Source of the DNA: Candidatus Kapaibacterium sp.
GTDB lineage: Bacteria > Bacteroidota > Ignavibacteria > Kapaibacteriales > UBA2268
Direction of reading: 5' to 3'
Assembly: GCA_023957315.1 (NCBI GenBank)
Contig: JAMLHE010000002.1
Coordinates: forward strand, 263,750 to 327,749
DNA: 64,000 bases
The notes under the pieces are model-generated. The model worked only from the letters and a program-made list of their open reading frames with translations. It did no database searches and was not told the DNA's origin. Shown in pieces: positions 7,172 through 50,716 of the stretch (its first letter is position 1; the number at the start of each line of letters is the position of its first letter). The position numbers and the translations under genes were made by a program.

Positions 7172-8092
7172 TTAAGCTACTACAAGTTGCAATGCTAATT
7201 GTTCAGGTCTCTTTTTCAAGCCGTGATTATGTGAAGTGATGTGGTCTGTATCGAAATTACAAACTAACGCTTCTACAACTGTACGTCTGTTTTCGATATT
7301 AGGACCGTTATGATAAAAATGGTCTTTAGTTACAATGTTGAAATTACTCCAAAATTTATTTATCATTTCATTCTCGCGCCAGTCATTATGATGCCAAGTT
7401 GAAAGGATAAACTTTGCTTTTGTTTCAGTCAATAGCTTAAACAAAAGTTCTTCATCTTGTTCTGTCCATCCGTTGTAATAATCAACGTGTCTGCCATAGT
7501 ATGGTGGGTCGCAATAAATAACATCGTCTTTTGTCGCAAGTGGAATAATATGTTCAAATGACTTGTTGTAAAAAGTCCAGTCCGGTTCGGGCTGAATAAT
7601 TTGCGAAACTGTCGCAAGTTGGTTAGTTATTTTAGTAATATATGCTTGAGCAAATCTTTCAGGTTTTTTGCAAAACGGAATGTTCCAATTTCCTTTACTA
7701 CCAAACCTCATCATACCATTGAAACCTGCACGGGAAAGAAAAATAAAGTCATAAGGTGAAAATTCTCCACTATTGAACCTTGTCCTGACTTTCAGATAAT
7801 GCTCATAGCCATTATTGTCGGCTTTGAATAAAAGCTCGCCTTCTTTTTCGAGGTAGTGTTTCATCAAAGGTGCAGTGATTGTCTTTTGCTGAACACCTTT
7901 GTAGAAATTAATGATATGAGGATTCGTGTCGTTAAGAATTGCCTTTTTGTAGCCGGAATTGAAAGCTACTACTCCGGTTCCCAAAAATGGCTCAATCCAT
8001 TTGCCATTAACCTTTGGTGCAAGTTCCATAATCCAAGGGACTAACTTAGTTTTTATTCCCTGACTTTTTATTGGTGGGACGAATACTTTCAT
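7172..8092 (-). CDS. Dam-family (D12 class) N6-adenine DNA methyltransferase, M.EcoRV-like
   Basis: EPFLGTGVV (FxGxG AdoMet motif) and DPPY catalytic motif; N-terminus MKVFVPPIKSQGIKTKLVPWI matches my memory of M.EcoRV; overlaps upstream REase gene by 4 bp. Confidence 0.7.
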   Translation of the reverse strand: MKVFVPPIKSQGIKTKLVPWIMELAPKVNGKWIEPFLGTGVVAFNSGYKKAILNDTNPHIINFYKGVQQKTITAPLMKHYLEKEGELLFKADNNGYEHYLKVRTRFNSGEFSPYDFIFLSRAGFNGMMRFGSKGNWNIPFCKKPERFAQAYITKITNQLATVSQIIQPEPDWTFYNKSFEHIIPLATKDDVIYCDPPYYGRHVDYYNGWTEQDEELLFKLLTETKAKFILSTWHHNDWRENEMINKFWSNFNIVTKDHFYHNGPNIENRRTVVEALVCNFDTDHITSHNHGLKKRPEQLALQLVVA

Positions 8093-9006
8093 TTCGATTT
8101 TGCCCTTGAGGTTCTTGAAACAATTTTATCCCAAAGGTCAGTTCTTCCTTTAAACTCCAAGAAAGCTTTAAGTGTCGTGATTTTGGTAGCGACACCGTCT
8201 TTTACCATCGTGGCAGTACCGTGATTTATCCAATATTCGTCAAACCATTCTTCACCCAACTGACTGAAAATTCCATTCTCATTTTTCAAGTCGTCAATGT
8301 CCAAAATTGAGCCAATATTTGCAGTGTTCCCGGAACCTTGTTTGTCGCTTGCAATTTTCCATTTCTCTGCTGCGAAAAAGTCGAAGTTCTTGATTACTGA
8401 GGTTATAGATTTCAAATTCTTTACAGTTGTTACTTCCCGTTGTCCAACTTTTTTGTTTGGTGTTTCATATTCCTCTTGAAGTTCTTTAACTTGATAAATT
8501 TCAGTGTTTGAAATGTCATCTGCAAAGTCCGTCCGAGTGTAAATTACACCTAAACAATAATGACCTGTGTATTGGCTGTATGGAAACTGTATGTTTTTGT
8601 CTTTGTCTCTTTCCTTGAAATAGCCACCGTGACTTCCAAGTGTAAAACCAGCTGTTTTGTTGTTTCGTCTGAAAGTTGTTTTGATGTCAAGAGCGAATTT
8701 GACGTCCTCGTTCTTCTTGTTTACAAAAGTAAGGTCGGGATACCAATTTTGCTTCTCAGCAAGAATAATATTGTAACCGATACTATCGGCAAACTGTAAG
8801 ATTTGAGGGAAAATATGTATTTCAAGAATTTTAGAAACGATTTTGGTGTCTGAAGAAATTGTATAGATGTTTTTGTATACGTCAATAAATCCTTTTACTG
8901 TCCAGTCGCCATTGTCAGTCGAAACATATTTTTCAAGCTTGTCGGCAAATTTGTCAAGCTCACTTTTGAAGTCATTTTTATATTTATTTTTTTCGTCTAA
9001 ATTCAT
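8089..9006 (-). CDS. type II restriction endonuclease, EcoRV-like (PD-(D/E)xK)
   Basis: Segments YPDLTF...LDIKTT (PD..D/ExK), GSGNTANIGSI, FTLGSHGGYF, YCLGVIYTRT match recalled R.EcoRV blocks; translationally coupled to MTase. Confidence 0.6.
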   Translation of the reverse strand: MNLDEKNKYKNDFKSELDKFADKLEKYVSTDNGDWTVKGFIDVYKNIYTISSDTKIVSKILEIHIFPQILQFADSIGYNIILAEKQNWYPDLTFVNKKNEDVKFALDIKTTFRRNNKTAGFTLGSHGGYFKERDKDKNIQFPYSQYTGHYCLGVIYTRTDFADDISNTEIYQVKELQEEYETPNKKVGQREVTTVKNLKSITSVIKNFDFFAAEKWKIASDKQGSGNTANIGSILDIDDLKNENGIFSQLGEEWFDEYWINHGTATMVKDGVATKITTLKAFLEFKGRTDLWDKIVSRTSRAKSK

Positions 9007-13019: not shown

Positions 13020-13997
13020 TTATTTTATATTATCCGATAAATTTAAAGTTTTTGAATTTCGTATCAAACCGAGCAGTTTTAACCTTTTGATTGGCGATTT
13101 CCGAAATCTCTCGCTAAATTGGACTTGGGTCATCTGTACAACTTCGTCATGATGCAATACTGTACTGCCTCCGCGTGGCAAAAAGGATGCGAAGTCTGTT
13201 ATTTTGGGCTTGTTTTTATTCCAAGGGCAAACTTCTTGGCAAATATCACAACCGAAAATCCAGCCCTCCATTTTTTCGGAAATCTCGGTCGGAATATCTA
13301 TATGATGCTTTGCTTCGATTGTCCAATACGACAAGCATTTTCGCGAATCAATGACTGCGTCCGCAACAATTGCATCTGTCGGGCAGGCTTTTATACATTT
13401 GACACATGTTCCGCATTTGTCCGCAATTGCAGTATCCGGCTCGAATTCGACTGTAGAAATGATTACACACAGAAAAAAGTATGAGCCGTAATCCGGCGAT
13501 AGCACAAGGCTGTTTTTGCCTTGCCATCCGATTCCTGCTCTTGCAGCCCACTGTTTTTCGAGTATTGGACCGGTATCTATGTAGCAAAGATTCTTTGAAT
13601 CGGGGAAATCTTGGCTTATGACCGATTCGATTTGTTTAATTTTCGGCATCAAAACATCGTGGTAATCATCGCCCCAAGCATATCTTGAAATTTTTCCTGC
13701 TTTACCGGCTTCGATTTCGGATTGCGGATAATCAACACCTGTGAAGTAAGAATGGCTCAATACTATTACAGATTTTGCATTTTCGAGCACAAGCCCAATG
13801 TTGCGTCTCTTGTCTTGGTTTCGTTCGAGCCACTGCATATCTGCGTGCATACCGTCTTCTAACCATTTTTGCATATTAGCCGATTCGGCGAGTAATTCTG
13901 TAGCTTGTGCGATTTTCAAATCCAAAAAACCAAGCTCTGAAGCGTGAAACTTTATCTTGTTTTTGAGGATTGTTTCGAACGACATTATCGTCTCCAA
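13020..13997 (-). CDS. queG: tRNA epoxyqueuosine reductase QueG
   Basis: Two 4Fe-4S motifs CGTCVKCIKACP and CDICQEVCPWNK; conserved QueG core. Confidence 0.75.
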   Translation of the reverse strand: METIMSFETILKNKIKFHASELGFLDLKIAQATELLAESANMQKWLEDGMHADMQWLERNQDKRRNIGLVLENAKSVIVLSHSYFTGVDYPQSEIEAGKAGKISRYAWGDDYHDVLMPKIKQIESVISQDFPDSKNLCYIDTGPILEKQWAARAGIGWQGKNSLVLSPDYGSYFFLCVIISTVEFEPDTAIADKCGTCVKCIKACPTDAIVADAVIDSRKCLSYWTIEAKHHIDIPTEISEKMEGWIFGCDICQEVCPWNKNKPKITDFASFLPRGGSTVLHHDEVVQMTQVQFSERFRKSPIKRLKLLGLIRNSKTLNLSDNIK

Positions 13998-14383
13998 AGT
14001 GGGATTTGGAAACTTGGCTTTTGGACATAAATCATATCGTCAATAATTTCCACTTTATAAGTGTTCAAATTCTTGATTCCTTGCCGTATATCAACGTTTT
14101 TCCCTGTATCAAGCGAATATGTCCATCCATGCAAAGGACACATCACGGTCAAATCTTTGATGATTCCCTCGTGAATACGGTCTGCATGGCGATGAGGGCA
14201 AATATTATCAACGCAATAGTAAATTCCGTCAATTTTAAACAGTGCAAGTTGGAAATCATCGTCGCCCGTAAATTGGATTTTTCTGCCCTTGTTGTCGATG
14301 ATTTCATCAACGCGGCAAATCTCAACGAAGCTTTCGCCACCGATGTTAACAGTTTTGGGGTGATTTAGTTCGATATCCATCAA
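13985..14383 (-). CDS. Rieske [2Fe-2S] domain protein
   Basis: CPHRH...CPLHGW Rieske ligands; overlaps queG start by 13 bp and the MBL gene by 4 bp. Confidence 0.8.
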   Translation of the reverse strand: MMDIELNHPKTVNIGGESFVEICRVDEIIDNKGRKIQFTGDDDFQLALFKIDGIYYCVDNICPHRHADRIHEGIIKDLTVMCPLHGWTYSLDTGKNVDIRQGIKNLNTYKVEIIDDMIYVQKPSFQIPLWRR

Positions 14384-15231
14384 AATCCTTGCACTTTTTC
14401 TCTGACAACGAATCCTTTGGGTCCGTTTTCGATTCTGACCGCTTGAGTGAATGCGTCATGCTCGAAAAAAATAATCCAATTTTCCTCAGCCGCTTGAGTG
14501 AAGTATTTCTTCTTTTCCTCGATTGTCGTAAGCGGGAAATTATCGTAGCCCATTCCGTATGCAATTCCCAAATGAGCCGTTGTAGGAGCTAAGTCGGCAC
14601 AATAGAGCAAGGTCTCGCCCCCATCGGTAATCTTTATCATTTGCATAAAACTTGTATGCCCATGAATTGGTATTACGCTGATACCGGGGAAAATTTCTCC
14701 TTCACCGTCAGTAAATTCCAAGACATTTTCATTTATTAAGGGTTGGTAATTTTCTGGCATGAACGAAGCTCTATCTTTAACCGAAGGTGATTTTGCCCAT
14801 TCGAGATGCTTTTTCTGAACATAATATTTGGCATTGCCGAATACTGGTTGAGCCTCACCATTTACCATTTCAGTCGAACCACCGCAATGGTCGAAGTGCA
14901 AATGAGTCAGAATTACATCGGTGATTTCTTCGGCTTTAATGCCTGTGGATTGGGTCAGTGTGTTGCGAATCTCGGATTTTTCAAGGTCAATGTTGTACAT
15001 CGAAACGAACTTATCGTCATATTTTGTTCCGTTGCCGTTGTCAACTAATATTTTTTTATCGTCAAAAGTGATGACTAAAGGGCGCGATGCGAGTGGAATG
15101 CGGTTGAACTCGTCGCCCTGATTGTATTTCTTAGACCAAAGATTTTTTGGTATCACTCCGAACATAGCCCCGCCATCTAATGCAAACAAGCCAGTATCAA
15201 GTGACTTTAATTCAAATTTGCCTATTTTCAA
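14380..15231 (-). CDS. MBL-fold metallo-hydrolase
   Basis: THLHFDHCGG metallo-beta-lactamase motif. Confidence 0.8.
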   Translation of the reverse strand: MKIGKFELKSLDTGLFALDGGAMFGVIPKNLWSKKYNQGDEFNRIPLASRPLVITFDDKKILVDNGNGTKYDDKFVSMYNIDLEKSEIRNTLTQSTGIKAEEITDVILTHLHFDHCGGSTEMVNGEAQPVFGNAKYYVQKKHLEWAKSPSVKDRASFMPENYQPLINENVLEFTDGEGEIFPGISVIPIHGHTSFMQMIKITDGGETLLYCADLAPTTAHLGIAYGMGYDNFPLTTIEEKKKYFTQAAEENWIIFFEHDAFTQAVRIENGPKGFVVREKVQGF

Positions 15232-15295
15232 TTTCGTTCTCGATTGGTTAACAAATATGTATAGTACAACGAAACAATCTCGAATTTATCATATA

Positions 15296-15331
15296 AAAGA
15301 AAAACCGTACAGCATTTTCATACTGTACGGT
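15296..15331 (-). terminator. rho-independent terminator (minus strand) downstream of repeat array
   Basis: Hairpin accgtacag-cattttcata-ctgtacggt followed by U-tract on the minus strand. Confidence 0.55.
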
Positions 15332-15398
15332 TAACCTATTAAAACCTATTTTAAATCAATCTTTGAGATTTCAATTCAACTATTACAAGAAATAAAAA

Positions 15399-15609
15399 AC
15401 CGCATAGTATTCTGTAATAGAGAAAAAAAGCAAATACGTAAAACAAAATCCAAAAAAATGAAACATAAATATAGAAAAATGAAACATAAATCTAAAAACA
15501 TGAGACATGATTCAAAAGTACATAAACAAGATTCTAATATATGTGAAACATAAATCCAAAAAACGTAAAACATAAATCCAAAAAGTCTGAACCCAAAATA
15601 CTATGCGGC
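15399..15609. repeat. array of ~7 degenerate ~21-bp direct repeats (core GAAACATAAATCCAAAAA) bracketed by a 12-bp perfect inverted repeat
   Basis: Units cgtaaaacaaaatccaaaaaaa / tgaaacataaatatagaaaaa / tgaaacataaatctaaaaaca / tgagacatgattcaaaag / ... / tgtgaaacataaatccaaaaaac / gtaaaacataaatccaaaaag; flanks ccgcatagtatt (15402-15413) and aatactatgcgg (15596-15607). Confidence 0.7.
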
Positions 15610-15614
15610 GATTT

Positions 15615-16586
15615 TTAATTAGCTACTATAAGTCTAGTGCTGAAAGCCCTCGAATCCATAATCATTTGCAACACATAAACGCCGTTACTTAAACTCGATA
15701 CGTTAAAACTCACTTGTTTTGAGCCCGGAGCTGAATACTCATTTACTATTACAGCCTCCTCATAACCAACACATGAATAAACACGAATAACGATTTGAGA
15801 TATTGTTTCAACTTCATAAAAAATATTTGCAACCGAAGAAACAGGATTAGGGCTGACTCTCAGGTAAACCTTCTCTGTATCGTTTTCGATTTGCGAAAAT
15901 TTTTCGACCATCGCCAATTGCTCTGACGAGAATTGTGATTTGATTGCATCTTCAATCATCTCTCTGCAAAGTTTGAATTCACCTTTTGTGGCTACTAAAG
16001 CCTTATCGAAAGCAGTGCAATACAAATGTTTGAAGTCTTGGTCGTTGAGATTGAAAGCAAAGATATTATAAACACCAAATTTGCTTTCGTCGAATCCGTT
16101 TTTCATGAAGGATGCAAAGTCAATGTTCGCAAGATTGAATTCCGTTTTTGACTTCTCGAGCAGCTTTTCAAATTCATCAATGCTTTTGGTCTTGTAAAAA
16201 TCGGTAAAGTCAATTCGCGAAAAGTCAAAATGAACCCCGCTCTGCTGCGAATTCATTTCATAGAACTTATTATAAACGTCTTCGAGAAAAGTGTAGTCTT
16301 TGTCGTATAGCAGCTCGAATTCTATCTCTTCAAGTGTAATTGAAATTCCTTTATTGTTCGGGACGTAGTAGTCAAATTCGTAATGTTCGGTGTATAATTG
16401 TAGGAAATTTTGTTGGGACAAGTCAAAATCGAAAGTGATGAAACCAACGTTCAAATCAGTATTCATCTCATTCTGTGAAGAATTTAAGTTGATTTGTGGT
16501 CGCTCTTGGCTGTTTAGTGTCAATGTCAGAACTAAGCTAAGTGCTATTGCGATTATAGCTTTGGGTGCATACATAGAGATTTTCAT
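15615..16586 (-). CDS. secreted hypothetical protein with T9SS C-terminal sorting domain
   Basis: Signal peptide; C-terminus ...VYSCVGYEEAVIVNEYSAPGSKQVSFNVSSLSNGVYVLQMIMDSRAFSTRLIVAN matches T9SS type-A CTD pattern. Confidence 0.65.
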   Translation of the reverse strand: MKISMYAPKAIIAIALSLVLTLTLNSQERPQINLNSSQNEMNTDLNVGFITFDFDLSQQNFLQLYTEHYEFDYYVPNNKGISITLEEIEFELLYDKDYTFLEDVYNKFYEMNSQQSGVHFDFSRIDFTDFYKTKSIDEFEKLLEKSKTEFNLANIDFASFMKNGFDESKFGVYNIFAFNLNDQDFKHLYCTAFDKALVATKGEFKLCREMIEDAIKSQFSSEQLAMVEKFSQIENDTEKVYLRVSPNPVSSVANIFYEVETISQIVIRVYSCVGYEEAVIVNEYSAPGSKQVSFNVSSLSNGVYVLQMIMDSRAFSTRLIVAN

Positions 16587-19362: not shown

Positions 19363-20591
19363 AAATATAAGAGATTATTTGTTACTAAAAAATTGTTGTT
19401 CAAATTCTAGCGGAGATAAATAATTCAAACTGGAATGCATCCTATGTCTGTTATAGAACACTTCAATATACTCGAATATCATCATCTCAGCTTCACTCCT
19501 TGTTTTAAATCGTGTTTGGTAAACTAATTCCATTTTTAATGTATGGAAAAATGTTTCTGTTATTGCATTGTCATAACAATTGCCTTTTCTACTCATACTT
19601 TGCGATATATGATTATTTTCAAGCAGATTGCGTACCTCGTTGCTTGCGTATTGCACACCTCTATCTGAGTGAAAAATCAATCCTTGCTTGGGCTTCCTTT
19701 CCGTGATTGACTTTTCTATCGCAGAATGTACAAACGCTTTGCTTAATCTTGTGTCAACTCGCCAGCTGATTATCTGTCTTGTAAATATGTCAATTACAAC
19801 GACTAGATAAAGCCAGCCTTCTCGTGTCCAGATATATGTTATATCCGATGCCCATACTTTATTTGGGCTTATTGTTGTAAAATTCTGTTTTAATTGATTC
19901 TCAGCCACCGGAAGACTATGATTTGAATTGGTAGTTGCTTTAAATTTTCGCTTTACGACTGATTTTAAAGATTGCTCTCGCATCAGTCTTGCAACCTTGT
20001 TCTTACCTATCATGATGCCTTTACGACGCAATGCCTGTGTTATTCTGGGCGACCCGTAAACTTGGCGGCTCTTTTCAAATATCTCCTTTATTTCTTTATT
20101 AATTAATTTGTCTGCATTCTTTCGATTGCTTGTTTTACCTTGCTTGTATTTATAGTACCCGCTCGTTGATACTCCTATTGCCCGGCATATTCTCAATACT
20201 GCATATTCTGAGCAGTGCTTTTCCACAAAGGAGTATTTATCTTCTATTCTTTTGAAAATATGCCGAGTGCTTTTTTTAATATGTCTCGCTCCTCTTTTAA
20301 AACCCGATTCTCTCGCTTAAGCCTTGTAAGCTCTGAATCTATAGGGCTTTGGTGTCCTTTACCGGGGAATGCACCTTCAGCATCTTTCAAATACCGTTGC
20401 TTCCAGAGATGCAAGGTATTTTCGTTTATACCAAGTTCTCTTGATAATTCCGATATTCGCTTTTGTTTGCTTAATATCAGTTTTACAGTATTTATTTTAA
20501 ATTCTTTGTCGTATGTTCTTTTTACTTTTTCCATTTTTGACCTCCGTTTTTCTCAAATCTAACTAGTTTTCATCTCTTTTCCTAATGTCCA
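19354..20591 (-). mobile_element. IS3-family insertion sequence (orfA 20244..20534, orfB 19375..20226, A7G slippery site)
   Basis: OrfA HTH transposase (IS3/IS911-like) and OrfB rve/DDE integrase core on the minus strand; AAAAAAAG slippery motif near orfA 3' end (plus-strand ctttttttaa ~20264-20273); imperfect ~21-bp terminal IRs starting TG (tgtacacaaatataagagatt at ~19356 vs revcomp tggacattaggaaaagagatg at 20571-20591, ~14/21 identical). Confidence 0.65.
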
Positions 20592-22297: not shown

Positions 22298-22881
22298 ATA
22301 AAATCCCGTAAAAATATGTTTGAATCCAACGTTTCTTTCAAATATAATGAATATTCTGAATTTAGACAGTTTCATGAACTCAAAATGCACTATATTTCAA
22401 AAAACAATCAGCTATCTATACACTATGACACATGAACAGCAAAAAAATCTCAGGGTGAGAAAAATATAAAAATCCCCCTGCTCGCAAGCTCGCTTTCCCC
22501 CTTTCAAAGGGGGATTAAGGGGGATTTGTATTTGGTTTTTGTCAACTTTTTTTAGGACTAAACAAAAAAAATCTAAATATTTTGTTCCTTTTTTGGGTTT
22601 GAAGTGTCATCATATATATAAAAAGTGTTTTTTTCTGTAAATTTGACAATTTCGATTGTCTATACATTTAGGGAGAATCTTTTCTCCGGAAAGTTTTTTC
22701 CGTCCCGTCTTTAACAAAACCGGAACATCTTAACCTCGAAGAGGTTACATGTTTATAGAAATGATGATTGATGTTCGGTTCGATGCGACCTCGTAGAGGT
22801 CGAATTTAAATAATTAACGTTTTGCTATAAACATATGACTCCTTCGGAGTCAAGAGGGATTCAAAGGAGCAGCTTTTTCAT

Positions 22882-22955
22882 CACCCACGGTTAAAACCGT
22901 GGGCTATGTTTGTCTTTCTCCCTCTCCTTCGGAGAATGTCGGGGTGAGGTTTCTT
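22882..22955. repeat. composite hairpin-module repeat (X: cccacggttaaaaccgtggg-ctatgtttgtc; Y: ctctccTTCGgaga..ggggtgaggtttctt), copy A
   Basis: Near-identical inverted copies of both modules at 40861..40939; Y also inside CDS at 36680..36727. Confidence 0.75.
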
Positions 22956-25476: not shown

Positions 25477-25483
25477 AATTTTG

Positions 25484-25558
25484 TCGGGGTGGAGGGATTC
25501 GAACCCCCGGCCCCCTGGTCCCAAACCAGGTGCGCTAACCGGACTGCGCTACACCCCG
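25484..25558 (-). tRNA. tRNA-Pro (anticodon TGG)
   Basis: Minus-strand read CGGGGTG-TA-GCGCAGTCCGGTTAGCGC-A-CCTGG-TTTGGGA-CCAGG-GGGCC-GGGGGTTCGAATCCCTC-CACCCCG-A: 7-bp acceptor stem, anticodon loop TT-TGG-GA, GTTCGAATC T-loop. Confidence 0.9.
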
Positions 25559-36590: not shown

Positions 36591-38207
36591 TCACAACTTC
36601 ACAAACATCCGCGTCCGGCTGCCGATACGGACGTAATACACACCACGAGAGAGATGCGAAATATCAACTCTCAAATTCCCGCTCCCTGAGCCTGTCGAAG
36701 GGTGAGCGGGCGGGGTGAGGTTTCTTACGCATTCACCAAGCGTATTGAAAATGTGAATTTCAGCACCTTCATCAACCCTACGGTTAACCGTAGGGTTGAT
36801 GGTGTGGGAACTGATTTCAATATATTCCGTTGCGGGATTGGGGTGGATTATCGTGCTGATTTGCACTGCTTCGTTGATGCTTGTGGGTTTCGTGCAGATG
36901 CTGCTTGTCCTGTGAATGTTGTTCTGGAACATTGTCCAGTCGGGACCTTGCCCGGTTCCTGCTGAAATTGCGTATGCTCTGCCGTAATTACTGTGCCAAT
37001 CGGGATATTCGACAAAGCCACCAATTATGAAAACATCGAGTATTCCGTCGCCGTCAAAATCCGCTACTACCGGGGCATGGTCTATCGAAAACTCTTTGCC
37101 GATATGGTCAGCAAGGTCAAGAGTCCAAATGACTGAAGCGTCAATGCCCCTAAGTGCGATTACTTGTCCGCCGGTAGTGCCGAAAATGACATCCGGCAAT
37201 CCGTCATTGTCTATATCTGATAGCGCTGCTCCACGAAATGATTGTTCGATATTGGGAATATCATATTCCCAAAGTACTGAGCCGTCGCCTTTTAGGGCAT
37301 AGTAGCGGTAAAAGCTCGAAAAGACTAATTCGCAATTTCCATCGCCGTCCAAATCGCCCACAACAACAGGCGAACCGATATATGAAATCGCCTTGAAACG
37401 CCATTTCAATGTGCCGTCTGCGGAATTGAGTGCAAAGAGATTGCCGGCATAATCGCCTATTACTAAATCATCTATTCCATCGCTGTCGAGGTCAACAACT
37501 GCGGTTCCGTGATAAACAACATCTTCCAAGTCGAATGTCCAGATTAATTGCTGGTCGTAGCCACGATAAGCATAAACTTTGCTTTGGTTGTCAGTTGTAT
37601 CAAAATTCCACGAGGCTACTACGAAATCTAATTTTCCGTCGCCGTCAAGGTCAACAATTGTCGGAGCAGTCTGAATCCATGAGTTAGTGTCCACTTTTAA
37701 GTCCCACTTTTTGATGCCATCGCTTGCGTTCATACATATTACATATCCACCGAATTGTCCGTGCAAAATTTCCAATTTTCCATCGCCATCAATATCTGCT
37801 ATTGTAGGCGGTGAATCGCTTCCACGTGTGAGAGTTTGCCATTTTACTGCTCCTGTTGCTCCGTCGAAACAATATGTGTAGGGATTGCACGAACTTGCGA
37901 CGATAACGTCGAGCAAGCCATCGCCGTCCACGTCGTAAATGAGTGGCGCCGTGTCGTTGCATCCCTCCTGCCAACCGGATGTATTGTACTTCCAGAGCAA
38001 TGTGCCATCGTCTAAATTGAGGGCATAAACCATGCTATCGTTGCGATAACAGCCGAAAACCACTTCGTATTTTCCGTCATGGTCAATGTCTGCGAGTGCG
38101 GACTGACCGTACGAATTATCGTTCAGGTCGTACCACCACTTAATTTCAGGTACTTGTGCAACACATTGGATTGCAACCAATGTAAAAATAAGAATCAAAG
38201 TTTTCAT
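36591..38207 (-). CDS. FG-GAP/VCBS beta-propeller repeat protein with T9SS C-terminal sorting domain
   Basis: Eight D-x-D-x-D-G-x-x-D repeats (DIDHDGKYEVVFG, VDGDGLLDVIV, DIDGDGKLEIL, DLDGDGKLDFVV ...); C-terminal IFNTLGECV...ISHLSRGVYYVRIGSRTRMFVKL. Confidence 0.75.
   Translation of the reverse strand: MKTLILIFTLVAIQCVAQVPEIKWWYDLNDNSYGQSALADIDHDGKYEVVFGCYRNDSMVYALNLDDGTLLWKYNTSGWQEGCNDTAPLIYDVDGDGLLDVIVASSCNPYTYCFDGATGAVKWQTLTRGSDSPPTIADIDGDGKLEILHGQFGGYVICMNASDGIKKWDLKVDTNSWIQTAPTIVDLDGDGKLDFVVASWNFDTTDNQSKVYAYRGYDQQLIWTFDLEDVVYHGTAVVDLDSDGIDDLVIGDYAGNLFALNSADGTLKWRFKAISYIGSPVVVGDLDGDGNCELVFSSFYRYYALKGDGSVLWEYDIPNIEQSFRGAALSDIDNDGLPDVIFGTTGGQVIALRGIDASVIWTLDLADHIGKEFSIDHAPVVADFDGDGILDVFIIGGFVEYPDWHSNYGRAYAISAGTGQGPDWTMFQNNIHRTSSICTKPTSINEAVQISTIIHPNPATEYIEISSHTINPTVNRRVDEGAEIHIFNTLGECVRNLTPPAHPSTGSGSGNLRVDISHLSRGVYYVRIGSRTRMFVKL
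36770..36801. repeat. perfect 32-bp palindrome inside the T9SS-CTD coding sequence (encodes INPTVNRRVD)
   Basis: catcaaccctacggttaaccgtagggttgatg; centre GTTAAC. Confidence 0.85.
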
Positions 38208-40695: not shown

Positions 40696-40860
40696 ACGCT
40701 AAAAATAAATTAAAAAAGTTCCCAAATGATAAACGGACAACAGTTTTTTTTAGTTAGTTTTTCTTATTCCCCCTCTTTCAAGAGGGTGTTACGAAATATT
40801 TTTAGGGCGTGCTAATTCTATCTAGCCGCAAAGGACACAAAGAGTTGAAATTGGTAAGAA

Positions 40861-40939
40861 GACAAACATAGCCCACGAATTTTGATGGTGGGTTAAGAAG
40901 GAAACCTCACCCCAACCTCTCCGAAGGAGAGGGAGAAAG
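40861..40939. repeat. composite hairpin-module repeat, copy B (rcX-rcY)
   Basis: gacaaacatagcccac..ggtggg + ggaaacctcaccccaacctctccgaaggagagggagaaag = reverse complements of modules X and Y of copy A. Confidence 0.75.
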
Positions 40940-41063
40940 AAAAATTGAAAAAAATAAAAAATTTGAAATTTTATTTGGAAATGACAAAAGTTTTTTATTT
41001 TGGGATATTGAATTTTACATTTTTGTAAATTGTTGTTAAATAAGGAGTAATTTATAATGAGTA

Positions 41064-42810: not shown

Positions 42811-44238
42811 ATGATTTCGTATATTTTAAATATAATATGGCTTGTCCTAATATTGAATTCAATTTTGTATTCTCAAACCGAATGGGAGCAAGTGCATCCT
42901 TCTACTTATGGTACAGCTGCAAAATTTAATACTGTAAGATGTTTAGACAGTTTAAATTGTGTGTGTTTGGTATGGAATGGTACAGTATGTTGCGAAGGTG
43001 TTCTAAAATCCACAGATGGTGGCAAAACATGGAGTGAATTATATTACGAAAAAATTACATATGATGAAGAAGGTAATTTGATTTGGCCACAACCCAGATA
43101 CATGAATTCAGTTTCATATAAAACAGTAGAAAATATCCTAATTTCACGTAGCCATGGGATGATTTTCAGGAGTAAAAATGGCGGTGAATCCTTTGATACC
43201 GTTCGAGTTGTAGTACCAGTCGATGGAAAATATCCAAGCAGTTCAGAATTAAAAAATATCCACATGTTCAGTAATTCAAAAGGGGCTGTTGTATCAACAC
43301 CAAATATTTATATTACTAATGATTATTGGGACTCCTTTGAAATGATTGAAATATCACATCCCGATGTACCTGATGATTATATAATTAAAGCATTAGATAT
43401 TCATTTTTTTGATAAAGATAAATTTACAATTTATTTCTTTGCCAATAAAGAAATTTCACCTAATAATTTCCATTTTTTATTCAAAGGATTCCTGACAACT
43501 ACGGATAATGGCAAAACATGGCATATGCAAGATATTTTAAATGATTTTCAGGCAAGAAATGTTTACATTAATTCATTGTTTTCTCTAAATCCTATGATTG
43601 GATGGGCTGTCGGTTATGTTGTTTATGATACAGACAATGGGGGTAGATTAAGACACGGACTTGTTTATAAAACTTATAACGGAGGTTATACATGGGATTT
43701 AATTCATGTAGATGAAACTGAACCAAAATTTGGTTTATGGGACATTGCTTTTTATGATGAACTAAACGGAATAACAGTAGGTAAATACGGGAAGATTTTA
43801 CGTACAACAGACGGAGGTTATAAATGGTTCTCCGATGTTCAATTGAGTGCCGAACAAGAATCTTCTCGACTCACTCAGGAAATTACTTTTGCCGGGCAAA
43901 ATCCAATTGTATGTGCTTGGCAAGATGGTATTGTTCGTGGCACATACACACCATCTTCTGTAAAAGAAAGCGCAGAAGCAGGGAGCGGGCTGTCCGTCTT
44001 TCCCAATCCGGCAAGCGAATATATAGAAATAACCATAGCTATCAACCCTACGGTTAACCGTGGAGTTGATGAAATTGCTGACATCAAAATCTTCAATACT
44101 CTGGGTGAATGTGTTGAAGAAATCCCCCTTAATCCCCCTTTGCCAAAGAGGGAAACAAGAATTGATGTTTCGCATCTTCCTCGTGGTGTGTATTATGTTC
44201 GTATTGGCAGCCGGACGCAGATGTTTGTGAAGATGTGA
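42811..44238 (+). CDS. BNR/Asp-box repeat (Ycf48/sortilin-like beta-propeller) protein with T9SS C-terminal sorting domain
   Basis: Asp-box repeats STDGGKTW, SKNGGESF, TTDNGKTW, KTYNGGYTW, RTTDGGYKW; C-terminal VFPNPASEYIEI...IFNTLGECV...VSHLPRGVYYVRIGSRTQMFVKM. Confidence 0.7.
   Translation: MISYILNIIWLVLILNSILYSQTEWEQVHPSTYGTAAKFNTVRCLDSLNCVCLVWNGTVCCEGVLKSTDGGKTWSELYYEKITYDEEGNLIWPQPRYMNSVSYKTVENILISRSHGMIFRSKNGGESFDTVRVVVPVDGKYPSSSELKNIHMFSNSKGAVVSTPNIYITNDYWDSFEMIEISHPDVPDDYIIKALDIHFFDKDKFTIYFFANKEISPNNFHFLFKGFLTTTDNGKTWHMQDILNDFQARNVYINSLFSLNPMIGWAVGYVVYDTDNGGRLRHGLVYKTYNGGYTWDLIHVDETEPKFGLWDIAFYDELNGITVGKYGKILRTTDGGYKWFSDVQLSAEQESSRLTQEITFAGQNPIVCAWQDGIVRGTYTPSSVKESAEAGSGLSVFPNPASEYIEITIAINPTVNRGVDEIADIKIFNTLGECVEEIPLNPPLPKRETRIDVSHLPRGVYYVRIGSRTQMFVKM
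44041..44070. repeat. imperfect copy of the 30-bp palindrome inside paralogous CTD coding sequence (encodes INPTVNRGVD)
   Basis: atcaaccctacggttaaccgtggagttgat. Confidence 0.8.
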
Positions 44239-48050: not shown

Positions 48051-50450
48051 TTACATCCCAAAAACGAAGTTCACCCAATAATTTCTTTCGGCGGCAGGGA
48101 AAAATTCCGGTCCGATGGCGCCCGATGCATAGTACAAATTCGTCAGATTGTTCACCACGGCATGAATTTTCATTTCTTCGAAAAATGGCAATTGCTTGAA
48201 AGTGTAAATCAGGCTTGCATCCAGCACTGTATATGCATCAAAGTTGTTATCTGCGTAATATCCACCTCCGAGATGACTTCTGATTCGCTCGTCAGTGGTC
48301 AGCATATCTCCGAAATTGTCCGTTTTATAAGTGCCGACATGCTTTAGGGCTACACCGAAGTACAAATCTTTGGTGCTGATGCCTACTCGTAAATTCGCCA
48401 TAAAATCGGGGAAACCGGCAATATTATTATCCGCAAGCGATACGAGATGACCCTGGCGAGTTGAGAAATTGTATTCGATAATTTTATTTTGGCTATAAGT
48501 TGCGTTGCCACTGATTCTCAAATCGAATAAATCCGAAACGTTGAAGATTTTCGTAGCCTGAAGCTCAATCCCATAGTGGCGGGTTTTTGGTGCATTGCCA
48601 TCAATCGGCGAGCCGAACAAATCGGTTTGCCCGCTTTTGACAAGCTCATCAGCGTATTCCATCCAATAGAATCCCGCATTTACGCTGAAATCTGTAGTCA
48701 AGTATCCCCAACCAAGCTCGAGATTGAGCATCTTTTCGGGTTTGACGAGTGCTTTGCTGAAGTCGTAAAGCCGAGTGCCATCTGAAGTAGTATCAAATGC
48801 AAATAGAGGTTTAGCACCCCAAAAAGCATCACTTGCAGCATAGAGATTCTTCATCCGCGGCTCGCGAGAAGTGTGTGCAAGTGAAATGTATGTGTTCATT
48901 TCATCAGTGACGTTGTAGTTAACGCCGATTCGCGGATTGAAGAAAACGTAATTAACATCAAAAAGTCTTTCGCCATTGCCCACTATAGTGCCGTCAGTAG
49001 TCGAATATTCAGTGAAAACATTGCCTGCTTTTTCGTTTTCGATTCCATAAGATTGATAAACGATTTGTGCATCCAAATTCAGTGCTATTCTTTCGGTCAG
49101 AAATAATTTCTCATTTGCAAATACGGAAAAGATATTGCGAATTCCATCATAATTGTAAAATTTGAAACCGGGGTCGAAATTCTCGGGCAAATTTTCTGCA
49201 AAATTAATCTTACCCCAATGATTGGAGCGGTGCATTCTTATTTCCATTCCACTTGTGAAAATGCCGTTTCCGTGATTCCAAACCAGACGCGGAATCCATC
49301 CGCCGTATTTATTGCCAACAAAAGCGCGTATTATCGGATTTGTCGGGTCATTGGCATCAGGATAGCCATTTTGCTCATTCAAACGGAATGACGAGGCATC
49401 TGTCCAGCCTGTGCCGTCATAATCAAAATATCCTTGACCTGTTTTGAAAAAAAGTGCTGATTTCAGCTCAAGATTCTCGGAAATGTGCCAATCATTCAGC
49501 AATTCAATCTGTGGTTGCGAAAATTGCTCTACTTCTTGATTTCGGCGAACTGTCACCCAATCTACTTCCGTTCCGTTTTCGCGGTCGTAAGACCAATAAT
49601 TGTAATTAGCTCTGCGTTTGTCGGCATCTTTTACATATGCTTTGGGCAAGCCCGTATAAGCCAAGCCGTCATCTTGCGAACCTGTAATAAAATTTATTTG
49701 CGTTGTCAGATTATCGTCAAATCGTGCGACGCCGAATTGGTAACTGTTCAAAGTTGCCCAAGATTGGTCGCGGTAACCGAATGAATTAATGCGATTTATA
49801 CGAGTATAAAAAGCATATTTATTATCAATTAATCCACTCGAAGCCGAAAGCCCGAATTTCGAGCCATATTGCCCGGCATTATATAGCGATGAGGCGCTTT
49901 CCTGAAAGCCAATTCCGGTGCTGAATTCGACAGACCTTTCACGAGCGAAATTCTTGGTGGTCATGATAATTGAACCACCAATTGCAGCAGCACCATAACT
50001 GCCAATTCCGGCTCCGCGTTGGACTTGGATGCTTTCGAGCCCCGAAGCCAAATCAGTCATGTTAATCCAATAGAAATTGTGGTCTTCGGGGTCGTTCTGA
50101 GGAATGCCATTAATGACAATAGAAATTCGTCGCTGGTCGAATCCGCGAAGTGTAAGATTGGTATAGCCGATAAAATTTCCACTTTCGGAGTATGCCAAAA
50201 TTGACGGCGTCTCGCTCAGGATTTTCGGCAAATCGTTTACTGTGTGGCGCTGGGCAATTTCCGAAACAGTGATTTCAGAAAAGGGTACAGGTGATTCTCG
50301 CTCTTGGGCGCGAGATGTGGTAACGGTTAGACTCGGTATCTTATATACACGAGTGGAATCTACGTTCAACTCTTCGGAATGAACGGTGAAAGCACCAATA
50401 AAAATCAGTGCAAATGCGATTAAGAAAATATTTCTCATGGAAAACTCCAA
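48051..50450 (-). CDS. TonB-dependent outer-membrane receptor (probable thiamine/thiamine-precursor transporter)
   Basis: Signal peptide, plug domain, 22-strand barrel, C-terminal ...NFVFGM; TPP riboswitch in 5' leader. Confidence 0.8.
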   Translation of the reverse strand: MEFSMRNIFLIAFALIFIGAFTVHSEELNVDSTRVYKIPSLTVTTSRAQERESPVPFSEITVSEIAQRHTVNDLPKILSETPSILAYSESGNFIGYTNLTLRGFDQRRISIVINGIPQNDPEDHNFYWINMTDLASGLESIQVQRGAGIGSYGAAAIGGSIIMTTKNFARERSVEFSTGIGFQESASSLYNAGQYGSKFGLSASSGLIDNKYAFYTRINRINSFGYRDQSWATLNSYQFGVARFDDNLTTQINFITGSQDDGLAYTGLPKAYVKDADKRRANYNYWSYDRENGTEVDWVTVRRNQEVEQFSQPQIELLNDWHISENLELKSALFFKTGQGYFDYDGTGWTDASSFRLNEQNGYPDANDPTNPIIRAFVGNKYGGWIPRLVWNHGNGIFTSGMEIRMHRSNHWGKINFAENLPENFDPGFKFYNYDGIRNIFSVFANEKLFLTERIALNLDAQIVYQSYGIENEKAGNVFTEYSTTDGTIVGNGERLFDVNYVFFNPRIGVNYNVTDEMNTYISLAHTSREPRMKNLYAASDAFWGAKPLFAFDTTSDGTRLYDFSKALVKPEKMLNLELGWGYLTTDFSVNAGFYWMEYADELVKSGQTDLFGSPIDGNAPKTRHYGIELQATKIFNVSDLFDLRISGNATYSQNKIIEYNFSTRQGHLVSLADNNIAGFPDFMANLRVGISTKDLYFGVALKHVGTYKTDNFGDMLTTDERIRSHLGGGYYADNNFDAYTVLDASLIYTFKQLPFFEEMKIHAVVNNLTNLYYASGAIGPEFFPAAERNYWVNFVFGM

Positions 50451-50497: not shown

Positions 50498-50598
50498 GGG
50501 CTGTCCTTGCGGCAACGCGTTTCCCTCCGCCGGTATTACCCGGATCAGGTTCAAGGAGACTCTCTCAGCCATACCTATTTTGGTATAGCACCTCCAAC
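50498..50598 (-). promoter_or_regulatory. TPP (THI-box) riboswitch
   Basis: Minus-strand RNA ..GGUGCUAUACC..GCUGAGAG..CCUUGAACCUGAUCCGGGUAAUACCGGCGGAGGGAAACG.. matches TPP aptamer consensus (GGUGC / CUGAGA / ACCUGAUCyGGnUAAUrCCrGCGnAGGGA). Confidence 0.85.
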
Positions 50599-50716
50599 GG
50601 TCTTTAATTCTTTTGCCCAAACGAAGCAAAAATGAATTTATTGTTAATATCGAATTCTAACTCAAACTACGCAAATGTCGCATTGTACGTTAATAATAAT
50701 TTACAAATAGCAAATA

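Follow-up and report, generated by a model that had tools for sequence, protein, structure and literature searches.

A conserved seven-unit repeat array in the terminator hairpin of a T9SS cargo gene from Kapabacteria

The locus, the repeat array and its terminators

The window analysed here, a 64,000-nt stretch of contig JAMLHE010000002.1 from Candidatus Kapaibacterium sp. (assembly GCA_023957315.1), holds a short tandem-repeat array between two genes of the minus strand. The upstream gene (15615–16586, minus) encodes a 323-aa cargo protein of the type IX secretion system (T9SS). The protein has a signal peptide, and its C-terminal sorting domain is of the Por_Secre_tail type (PF18962, E = 1.3e-8; TIGR04183). 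The stop codon of the gene occupies 15615–15617, and the repeat element starts 6 nt past the stop. The downstream gene, for a metallo-β-lactamase (MBL)-fold hydrolase, spans 14380–15292 (minus) together with its conserved promoter/leader (15232–15292), and is the first of an operon that continues with Rieske, QueG and major facilitator superfamily (MFS) transporter genes. A gene for a SurA-like peptidyl-prolyl isomerase (PPIase) is also nearby. The operon genes are neighbours only, with no demonstrated part in the element.

Tandem Repeats Finder placed the array at 15441–15584 (period 21, 6.8 copies, 73% matches, score 113), and ranked it as the top-scoring tandem repeat of the window. In combination with a unit hidden Markov model (HMM) and an alignment of orthologues, seven tandem units were delimited on the minus strand between 15437 and 15585: U1 (15564–15585), U2 (15542–15563), U3 (15518–15541), U4 (15499–15517), U5 (15480–15498), U6 (15459–15479) and U7 (15437–15458). 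These are degenerate units of 21–22 nt with the minus-strand consensus U5-7 (A)GR AUUUAUG UUUYA(YG), U3 and U4 being the most degenerate of the seven, and they follow one another without spacers. The core GAAACATAAATCCAAAAA, with up to three mismatches allowed, was matched four times in the 64-kb window against 0.46 expected; all four matches fell within the array, and their number was reached by none of 100 shuffles. The HMM picked up all seven units and none elsewhere in the 64 kb (next-best match E = 5.4). The unit as modelled by the HMM has no dyad and no clear half-site substructure. These three analyses confirm the roughly seven 21-bp direct repeats described in the initial annotation.

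The units are enclosed by an inverted repeat, CCGCATAGTATT, which is perfect over 12 nt at 15400–15411 and 15597–15608 and extends to 15 nt at 93%. A perfect 12-bp repeat had been noted previously, with the right arm displaced by one base. The inverted repeat by itself is barely beyond chance, as two or more matches were obtained in 3 of 100 shuffles, but it counts as real because it is invariant in the relatives described below. Both the repeat array and the inverted repeat are real.

As RNA, the inverted repeat forms a predicted clamp helix of 16 bp (14 Watson–Crick and 2 G·U pairs; −24 to −27 kcal/mol), directly followed by the U-tract UUUUUUAUUU. The 5′ arm, GCCGCAUAGUAUUUUG, lies at 15594–15609 (minus) and the 3′ arm, CAGAAUACUAUGCGGU, at 15399–15414 (minus); the U at 15399 is shared, being the first base of the U-tract and the last of the extended 3′ arm. 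In the predicted fold, the U-tract pairs with the A-tract upstream, UUAAAAAUC, which adds 6 bp to give a helix of 22 bp with a 2-nt bulge (−26.6 kcal/mol). The order on the minus-strand RNA is thus stop codon, A-tract, 5′ arm of the 16-bp helix, 185-nt interior, 3′ arm and UUUUUUAUUU. The interior was expected to be U-rich on the transcribed strand, and is so (58% U, 18% A, 14% G, 10% C). It folds no better than shuffled sequence on either strand (z = −1.3 for minus, +0.2 for plus). Past the last unit it ends in a conserved non-repeat tail, UAUUUGCUUUUUUUCUCUAUUA (15415–15436, minus; alignment and column map), while the rest of the U-tract and a conserved 3′ flank, CUUGUAAUAGUUGAAUUGAAA, occupy 15369–15398 (minus).

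The clamp helix (T1) has the general build of an intrinsic terminator, with a G+C-containing stem running directly into a U-tract on the transcribed strand. Its loop of 185–191 nt, however, is far from the approximately 3–8 nt of short-loop terminators, and a terminator consensus scan recovered only a second terminator (T2), not T1. T2 is canonical (15293–15332, minus; 13-bp stem, GAAA loop and U-tract; −21.6 kcal/mol), and lies about 60 nt downstream of the clamp helix and its U-tract, beyond a variable spacer (15342–15368) that provided an internal non-coding control. The scan called the T2 hairpin at 15303–15332, with the 13-bp stem followed by TTTCTTTTAT; among relatives its loop varies but its stem does not. 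The array therefore lies where it had first been placed: it follows the coding part of the T9SS cargo gene, on the minus strand from which that gene is read, and precedes a terminator.

The arm and U-tract of T2 (15293–15332) match those of the clamp helix (15390–15414; repeat family D4) at 77% identity. This similarity indicates that T1 and T2 are paralogous, and suggests that T2 is a duplication that restored efficient termination. The 3′ arm of T1 can pair with the 5′ arm of T2 at −13.6 kcal/mol, so that the arms may form a 1-2-3-4 layout like that of an attenuator, although T2's own hairpin is far more stable. A further predicted hairpin of 8 bp (−8.9 kcal/mol) joins CUAUUACA (15413–15420, running into the 3′ arm) to UGUAAUAG, downstream of the U-tract, and can enclose both the 3′ arm and the U-tract. 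A consensus scan gave no convincing internal promoter; a lone TATAGT lies in the last codons of the T9SS gene, and nothing promoter-like occurs upstream of the helix. A 9/12 sigma-70-like match within units 5–6 was rejected since it is not conserved in the related locus L005.

Conservation and origin of the array

Related loci were collected as those with T9SS homologues 76–89% identical to that of the window (L001–L007, L133 and L137) and as genome-scan matches (L011 and L012). All share one gene order: SurA-like PPIase, T9SS cargo gene, a gap of ~400 nt, MBL, Rieske, QueG and MFS. The array is carried by L001, L004, L005–L007, L012, L133 and L137, in four sequence variants besides the window's own. 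In every array-bearing relative the seven units recur at this site, and the features that set each unit apart are retained, those of the degenerate U3 and U4 among them. The MAGs (metagenome-assembled genomes) behind L001–L004 and L012 derive from samples of deep groundwater and serpentinising aquifers. L012 (JAGXRP010000037.1) is filed under a Desulfobulbaceae MAG, yet it carries the end of a Kapabacteria T9SS gene with the array, which is nearly identical to those of L004 and L137, so that mis-binning of the contig is probable.

The array with its inverted repeat is 98.6% identical to the window in L001 and 92% identical in L004, L005 and L007, while L133 shows no difference from the window anywhere in the element. 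Flanking genes are 73–93% identical between the window and its relatives, and the array is more conserved than every one of them. The interval 15342–15399, comprising the spacer plus the conserved 3′ flank and U-tract, is only 69–79% identical; its variable columns fall in 15342–15368, as seen in a column-wise conservation map.

As a neutral yardstick, four-fold degenerate sites were taken from the neighbouring MBL, Rieske and QueG genes. Identity to the window at these sites was 80% for L133, 74% for L001, and 59% for both L005 and L004, from which about 37–75 substitutions would be predicted in the 185-nt interior. The numbers found were 0, 3, 18 and 23, respectively (binomial P < 1e-16 in each of the four comparisons). 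Array divergence is 4–10 times lower than that of four-fold sites and of the adjacent spacer. Five or six 1-nt indels have occurred among lineages, in the linkers between units, and these alter the unit spacing. Because array divergence rises with phylogenetic distance, the pattern is one of vertical inheritance under constraint and not of recent transfer. Units differ from one another by ~27% but from their orthologues by 0–10%, which argues that the unit duplications are old relative to the clade and that the array has been held nearly fixed since.

Conservation is not confined to the helix and its contents. The conserved block spans about 15648 to about 15369, where it ends abruptly, about 30 nt past the U-tract. 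On the 5′ side, the last ~10 T9SS codons, the stop codon and the A-tract (15610–15648, minus) are invariant in all relatives; over the last 10 codons, all 10 third positions agree in each of the four comparisons, as against 60–100% identity in bins farther upstream. Within helices, only two changes were found among the relatives, both from U-A to U·G, so that pairing is kept only in the minus-strand RNA. In the clamp, 21 of the 22 pairs never vary; in the local 8-bp hairpin, 100% of cells are paired across relatives, with one U-A to U·G change.

The T9SS cargo protein itself is 100% identical to a ‘Candidatus Kapabacteria’ MAG protein, and its homologues form only eight clusters in a set of 5.8 billion proteins. 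Its length differs greatly from one close relative to the next (323, 424, 430 and 456 aa). The window's protein is 89% identical to P0002 with a 101-aa in-frame deletion, and in L133 (3001–3972) the gene is called as a truncated product of 233 aa, with the C-terminal part out of frame. The downstream element is unchanged in L133 and in the window despite these altered proteins. As the array was kept through both the deletion and the truncation, selection on it seems to be independent of the T9SS product.

The origin of the array was apparent from a sister clade with MBL proteins 76–78% identical and T9SS proteins 54–55% identical, in which the same gene order is kept without the array. At the same post-stop position, L009 has a plain terminator (GAGCGTATGTT, a 13-nt loop, AACATACGCTC and T7), and L008 is similar. 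L010 (1464–1585) and L134 (2320–2440) have the same stem, GGAGCGTATGTTC/GAACATACGCTC, around a T-rich loop of ~95 nt, which is ~92% identical between the two while their four-fold sites are 78–80% identical. This loop has no significant similarity to the array (alignment score 24, shuffles 23.1 ± 3.8), and the unit HMM found no units within it. Since sister lineages hold a terminator hairpin exactly there, comparison of the loci indicates that the array is an expansion of the T9SS gene's terminator loop, and that this loop has undergone two or more independent expansions. A U-rich loop segment of ~21 nt was duplicated to seven copies in a single shallow clade of Kapabacteria; the copies then diverged from one another, and the array has changed very little since. 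The sister clade has a weak unit-like sequence, TTTTTTCGAATTATGTTTGGATTTTATG, some 90 nt ahead of the T9SS start codon (L134, 894–910; L010, 35–50; E = 0.7–1.7, not significant); in L010, where the gene is called short, this distance is counted from a full-length start. No counterpart of it was found upstream of the window's T9SS gene.

Interpretation of the element

The element is a conserved, single-copy, lineage-specific non-coding element derived from a terminator loop. As the array changes far more slowly than the silent sites of neighbouring genes, it is probably a working element and not junk, a plasmid origin or a mobile element, and the working element is most likely an RNA. The post-stop position, the same-strand neighbours, the A-tract, the helix and the U6 tract all favour RNA, and 1-nt changes in spacing suit single-stranded RNA binding better than phased binding to DNA. 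The unstructured interior, the U·G changes that keep pairing in minus-strand RNA, and selection that seems independent of the T9SS protein point the same way. A promoter on the plus strand is unlikely, because the sequence upstream on that strand is the poorly conserved spacer.

We tentatively favour, at somewhat less than even chances, a minus-strand RNA made with the T9SS transcript that presents seven single-stranded motifs to an RNA-binding factor. The array would be co-transcribed with the T9SS gene, and the clamp helix would pin both ends of a 185-nt stretch that is essentially unstructured. The seven copies of (A)GR-AUUUAUG-UUUYA would then be candidate sites for several copies of a single-strand-specific factor, with the RNA acting as a multivalent platform or sponge. 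The clamp helix could protect the ends, or could serve as a processing stalk for a double-strand RNase that frees the array. Occupancy of the loop could also choose the transcript end, between the clamp helix with its U6 tract and the second terminator. Of the functions first suggested for the repeats, that of an sRNA (small RNA) or sponge appears to be the best-fitting.

Among known systems, the array seems most like sRNAs derived from 3′ untranslated regions (UTRs) and protein sponges with repeated motifs, but it belongs to no family considered. The 3′-UTR-derived sRNAs NarS (PMC7038943), GlnZ (PMC9731577) and UhpU (PMC12704781) share the terminator of the upstream mRNA. Like them, the array lies between stop codon and terminator, directly after the stop, is co-oriented with its gene, ends at the gene's terminator and is conserved above its surroundings. 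Such sRNAs act by base pairing through one or two short seeds that precede an ordinary small terminator hairpin, whereas the conserved part of the array is a seven-fold repeat inside the terminator hairpin. To our knowledge, no case of a motif array inside a terminator hairpin has been described.

Protein-sponge RNAs such as CsrB and RsmZ (for CsrA) and CrcZ (for Hfq/Crc) carry repeated binding motifs, and the array resembles them in its many copies of a short motif about 20 nt apart on one RNA that ends in an intrinsic terminator. The CsrA motif, however, is GGA in hairpin loops. The array units are unstructured, GGA occurs in 3/7 of them and is not conserved, and no CsrA-sponge RNA was matched in Rfam even at E ≤ 10. 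The CrcZ motifs are A-rich, and a likeness would need the plus strand of the array. Searches of Rfam 15 gave no match to the element at gathering thresholds; at E ≤ 10 the best reached 22.9 bits against a cut-off of 59, and lay on T2.

Under an RNA reading, the array can also be compared with the trp leader of Bacillus, where TRAP binds 11 (G/U)AG triplets spaced 2–3 nt apart. Both have regular single-stranded motifs, and in both occupancy by a multimeric protein would decide a terminator-related helix. The array differs in having 7 units of 21 nt and in lying in a 3′ region instead of a 5′ leader, and we know of no TRAP-like protein for this clade. In type III toxin–antitoxin systems, ToxI-type antitoxin RNAs are tandem repeats with units of about 34–45 nt, and an endoribonuclease of the ToxN/AbiQ family is encoded downstream. 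The array shares with these the succession of short direct tandem repeats, a terminator and a gene on the same strand. Its units are only 21 nt, however, and the downstream gene encodes a widespread, YtnP-like MBL-fold hydrolase, found in thousands of genomes including sister lineages without the array. A type III toxin–antitoxin or other defence locus was therefore rejected; PADLOC gave one weak partial match, LmuA (E = 1.4e-5), and no type III toxin.

Several points weigh against an RNA that binds a factor in this way. RNA function and binding are predictions from sequence comparison, and the cognate binding protein is hypothetical. The motif (A)GR-AUUUAUG-UUUYA is not known to match any binding site. 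GGA is present in three units only, and one of these becomes GAA in L004. No pair in the relatives' alignment shows compensatory covariation, the clade being too shallow to expect any, and the two U·G changes are weak evidence, being single events at helix ends. The flanks 15610–15648 and 15369–15389 pair with each other no better than shuffles do, and the RNA reading does not account for their conservation. Finally, the strong conservation and a period of two helical turns would suit a DNA-binding array equally well.

Such an array of DNA sites is an unlikely but serious alternative. Here, a DNA-binding protein, possibly a winged-helix response regulator of the OmpR/PhoB type or a ribbon–helix–helix protein, would bind cooperatively to seven contiguous sites of 21–22 bp (two helical turns each), and the array would act on the promoter of the MBL–Rieske–QueG operon about 180 bp away or on chromosome organisation. 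Sites of the OmpR/PhoB type are contiguous direct repeats of ~20–22 bp, and the plus-strand core TGAAACAT may resemble part of OmpR-type half-sites. The period, the contiguity of the units, their strong conservation and the conserved MBL promoter region just downstream all agree with DNA binding, as does the extent of the conserved block, which exceeds the RNA helix on both sides with extensions that do not pair together. The conservation data fit DNA and RNA alike. An operator would nevertheless be oddly placed inside a terminator hairpin, after a stop codon and ahead of two terminators, and the indels alter the unit spacing and so shift the cumulative helical phase. No regulator gene has been gained beside the array, sister lineages share the gene order without it, and the unit lacks a dyad or clear half-site substructure.

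A likeness to iterons had also been raised initially, and the array, with its period of 21 and 6.8 copies, does fall within the tandem direct repeats of 17–22 bp that define them. The gamma origin of plasmid R6K has seven 22-bp iterons, in number, contiguity and size much like the array. An iteron replication origin did not survive further examination, however. No rep or par gene lies nearby, the neighbours (T9SS cargo, MBL hydrolase, Rieske, QueG, MFS transporter and SurA-like PPIase) including no initiator. DnaA boxes are at chance level in the window (19 found, 19.4 expected; nearest at 13723), GC skew has no turning point at the array site, and no similarity was found among 72,556 plasmids. 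The array instead sits in conserved chromosomal synteny, which is kept in lineages without it. Matches were likewise absent from viral contigs (0), and those in phages were two chance matches of 43 nt.

Slightly less probable than DNA sites is a 3′-end device acting purely in cis, with no role in trans. The long loop would slow the folding of T1 and so make the ratio of transcripts ending at T1 and at T2 tunable. Read-through into the MBL operon might also be allowed, if the 3′ arm of T1 paired with the 5′ arm of T2; in another variant, the AU-rich single strand and the 22-bp helix, which is long enough for a double-strand RNase, would be RNase entry sites that set the half-life of the T9SS mRNA. 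This accords with the location of the array exactly at the terminator position of sister lineages, the apparent paralogy of T1 and T2, the possible pairing between their arms, and the conserved local hairpin that can sequester the T1 3′ arm. T2 is much stronger than the alternative pairing, however (−21.6 versus −13.6 kcal/mol), and neither termination nor stability would need base-by-base conservation of seven distinct units. The array is also 100% conserved in L133, where the T9SS product is cut to 233 aa, and is kept in the window, where 101 aa have been lost.

A more specific form of the favoured RNA platform, which we regard as doubtful, is a new type of protein-gated terminator, or a repeat-RNA sponge, born by tandem duplication inside a terminator loop. 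In the gated version, the seven 21-nt units would be occupied by a multimeric protein of this FCB-group lineage that binds single-stranded RNA; this would join or separate the clamp arms, leading to termination at T1 or to read-through to T2 or beyond. In the sponge version, a double-strand RNase would cut the clamp to free a U-rich RNA of ~190 nt that titrates the protein. If the proposed RNA function holds, the locus would be a clear example of the birth of a regulatory RNA, in which a terminator loop, normally free to vary, was expanded by duplication and then frozen by selection, while a duplicated terminator would have restored efficient 3′-end formation. It would also be among very few candidate regulatory RNAs in Ignavibacteria/Kapabacteria, which are known only from metagenomes and have no well-studied RNA chaperones. 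Its reach is limited to one locus in one shallow uncultured clade, though the practical lesson is that relatives should be compared before a short tandem repeat is dismissed as a minisatellite.

A functionless array, whether a slippage minisatellite or a MITE (miniature inverted-repeat transposable element)-like insertion with 12-bp terminal inverted repeats, has already been largely refuted and is very improbable. It might draw on the BOX elements of Streptococcus pneumoniae, boxA-(boxB)n-boxC, with about 100 copies per genome and variable boxB number (PMC3049150). Like these, the array has tandem units whose partly complementary flanks form one long hairpin, and it lies between genes, near gene ends; a terminator loop expanded with unrelated T-rich sequence, as in L010 and L134, could also be taken in its favour. 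Unlike BOX, however, the array is single-copy, fixed in unit number and under strong purifying selection. A minisatellite or variable number tandem repeat, named in the initial annotation as an alternative, was rejected on the seven units in all variants found and on 0–23 substitutions against 37–75 expected. CRISPR is excluded, as it was at the outset, by contiguous units of period 21 with no unique spacers.

The small non-autonomous element suggested at first fared no better. No further copy of the unit or of the inverted repeat occurs in the 64-kb window, and a scan of 185,579 species genomes (one genome per species) gave matches to the tandem-unit pattern at the orthologous locus alone. 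A metagenome scan with the loose pattern ATTTATGTTT-N9-14-ATTTATGTTT gave at least 120 matches, and those among the matches listed were only unrelated AT-rich minisatellites. The flanks, AAAATCG and TTTTTTA, show no target-site duplication, and inheritance has been vertical. What look like terminal repeats of the array are the arms of the T9SS gene's own terminator, at ancestral terminator-arm positions. A MITE or other dispersed element was rejected accordingly. It had been proposed that a unit found nowhere else would speak against function; in the sequences scanned, the unit is indeed confined to this locus, but function is not thereby refuted.

The least likely reading, which we consider close to negligible, is a small hydrophobic protein with a heptad repeat, encoded by a 65-aa open reading frame (ORF) at 15376–15573 (minus): the ORF exists in the window and 21 nt equals seven codons, but single-base indels break every frame between orthologues, whose predicted peptides share the first ~9 residues and then diverge completely, and no good ribosome-binding site is present, in contrast to the GGAGG 7–8 nt before the ATG of the T9SS gene. 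That the units mimic ribosome-binding sites, through (A)GGAUUUAUG, was also rejected, since the spacing is too short relative to GGAGG-N7-8-ATG and GGA is not conserved.

Other features of the window

An IS3-family transposase gene (rve, HTH_21; 19375–20226, minus; region 19375–20562) lies between the SurA-like gene and a CarboxypepD_reg/Laminin_G_3 gene. Those two genes are direct neighbours in L001–L003, so the insertion in the window is lineage-specific.

Two further T9SS cargo genes share their 3′ ends. Positions 36591–36800 and 44041–44238 form an inverted repeat of ~230 nt, 7.2 kb apart (81 nt at 89% and 74 nt at 84% complementarity), which corresponds to the Por_Secre_tail coding parts of an FG-GAP/beta-propeller gene (36591–38207, minus) and a BNR/sortilin-like gene (42811–44238, plus). 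Both genes hold the 31-nt palindrome ATCAACCCTACGGTTAACCGTAGGGTTGATG inside their coding sequence, and the repeated ends may reflect gene conversion or shuffling of the sorting domain. Between 22893–22935 and 40859–40944, ~18 kb apart, there are two short inverted-repeat pairs (24 and 27 nt; 92–96% complementary). The sequence AAGGGGGATT, present twice at 22507 and as its reverse complement at 44121, may be related to these.

A type II restriction–modification system, with an EcoRV-like restriction endonuclease beside a D12-class N6-adenine methyltransferase, occupies 7172–9006 (minus). A thiamine pyrophosphate (TPP) riboswitch (50505–50605, minus; 68.6 bits) adjoins the start of a 799-aa ORF (48051–50450, minus) and, like the tRNA-Pro(UGG) gene at 25483–25558 (minus), is ordinary.

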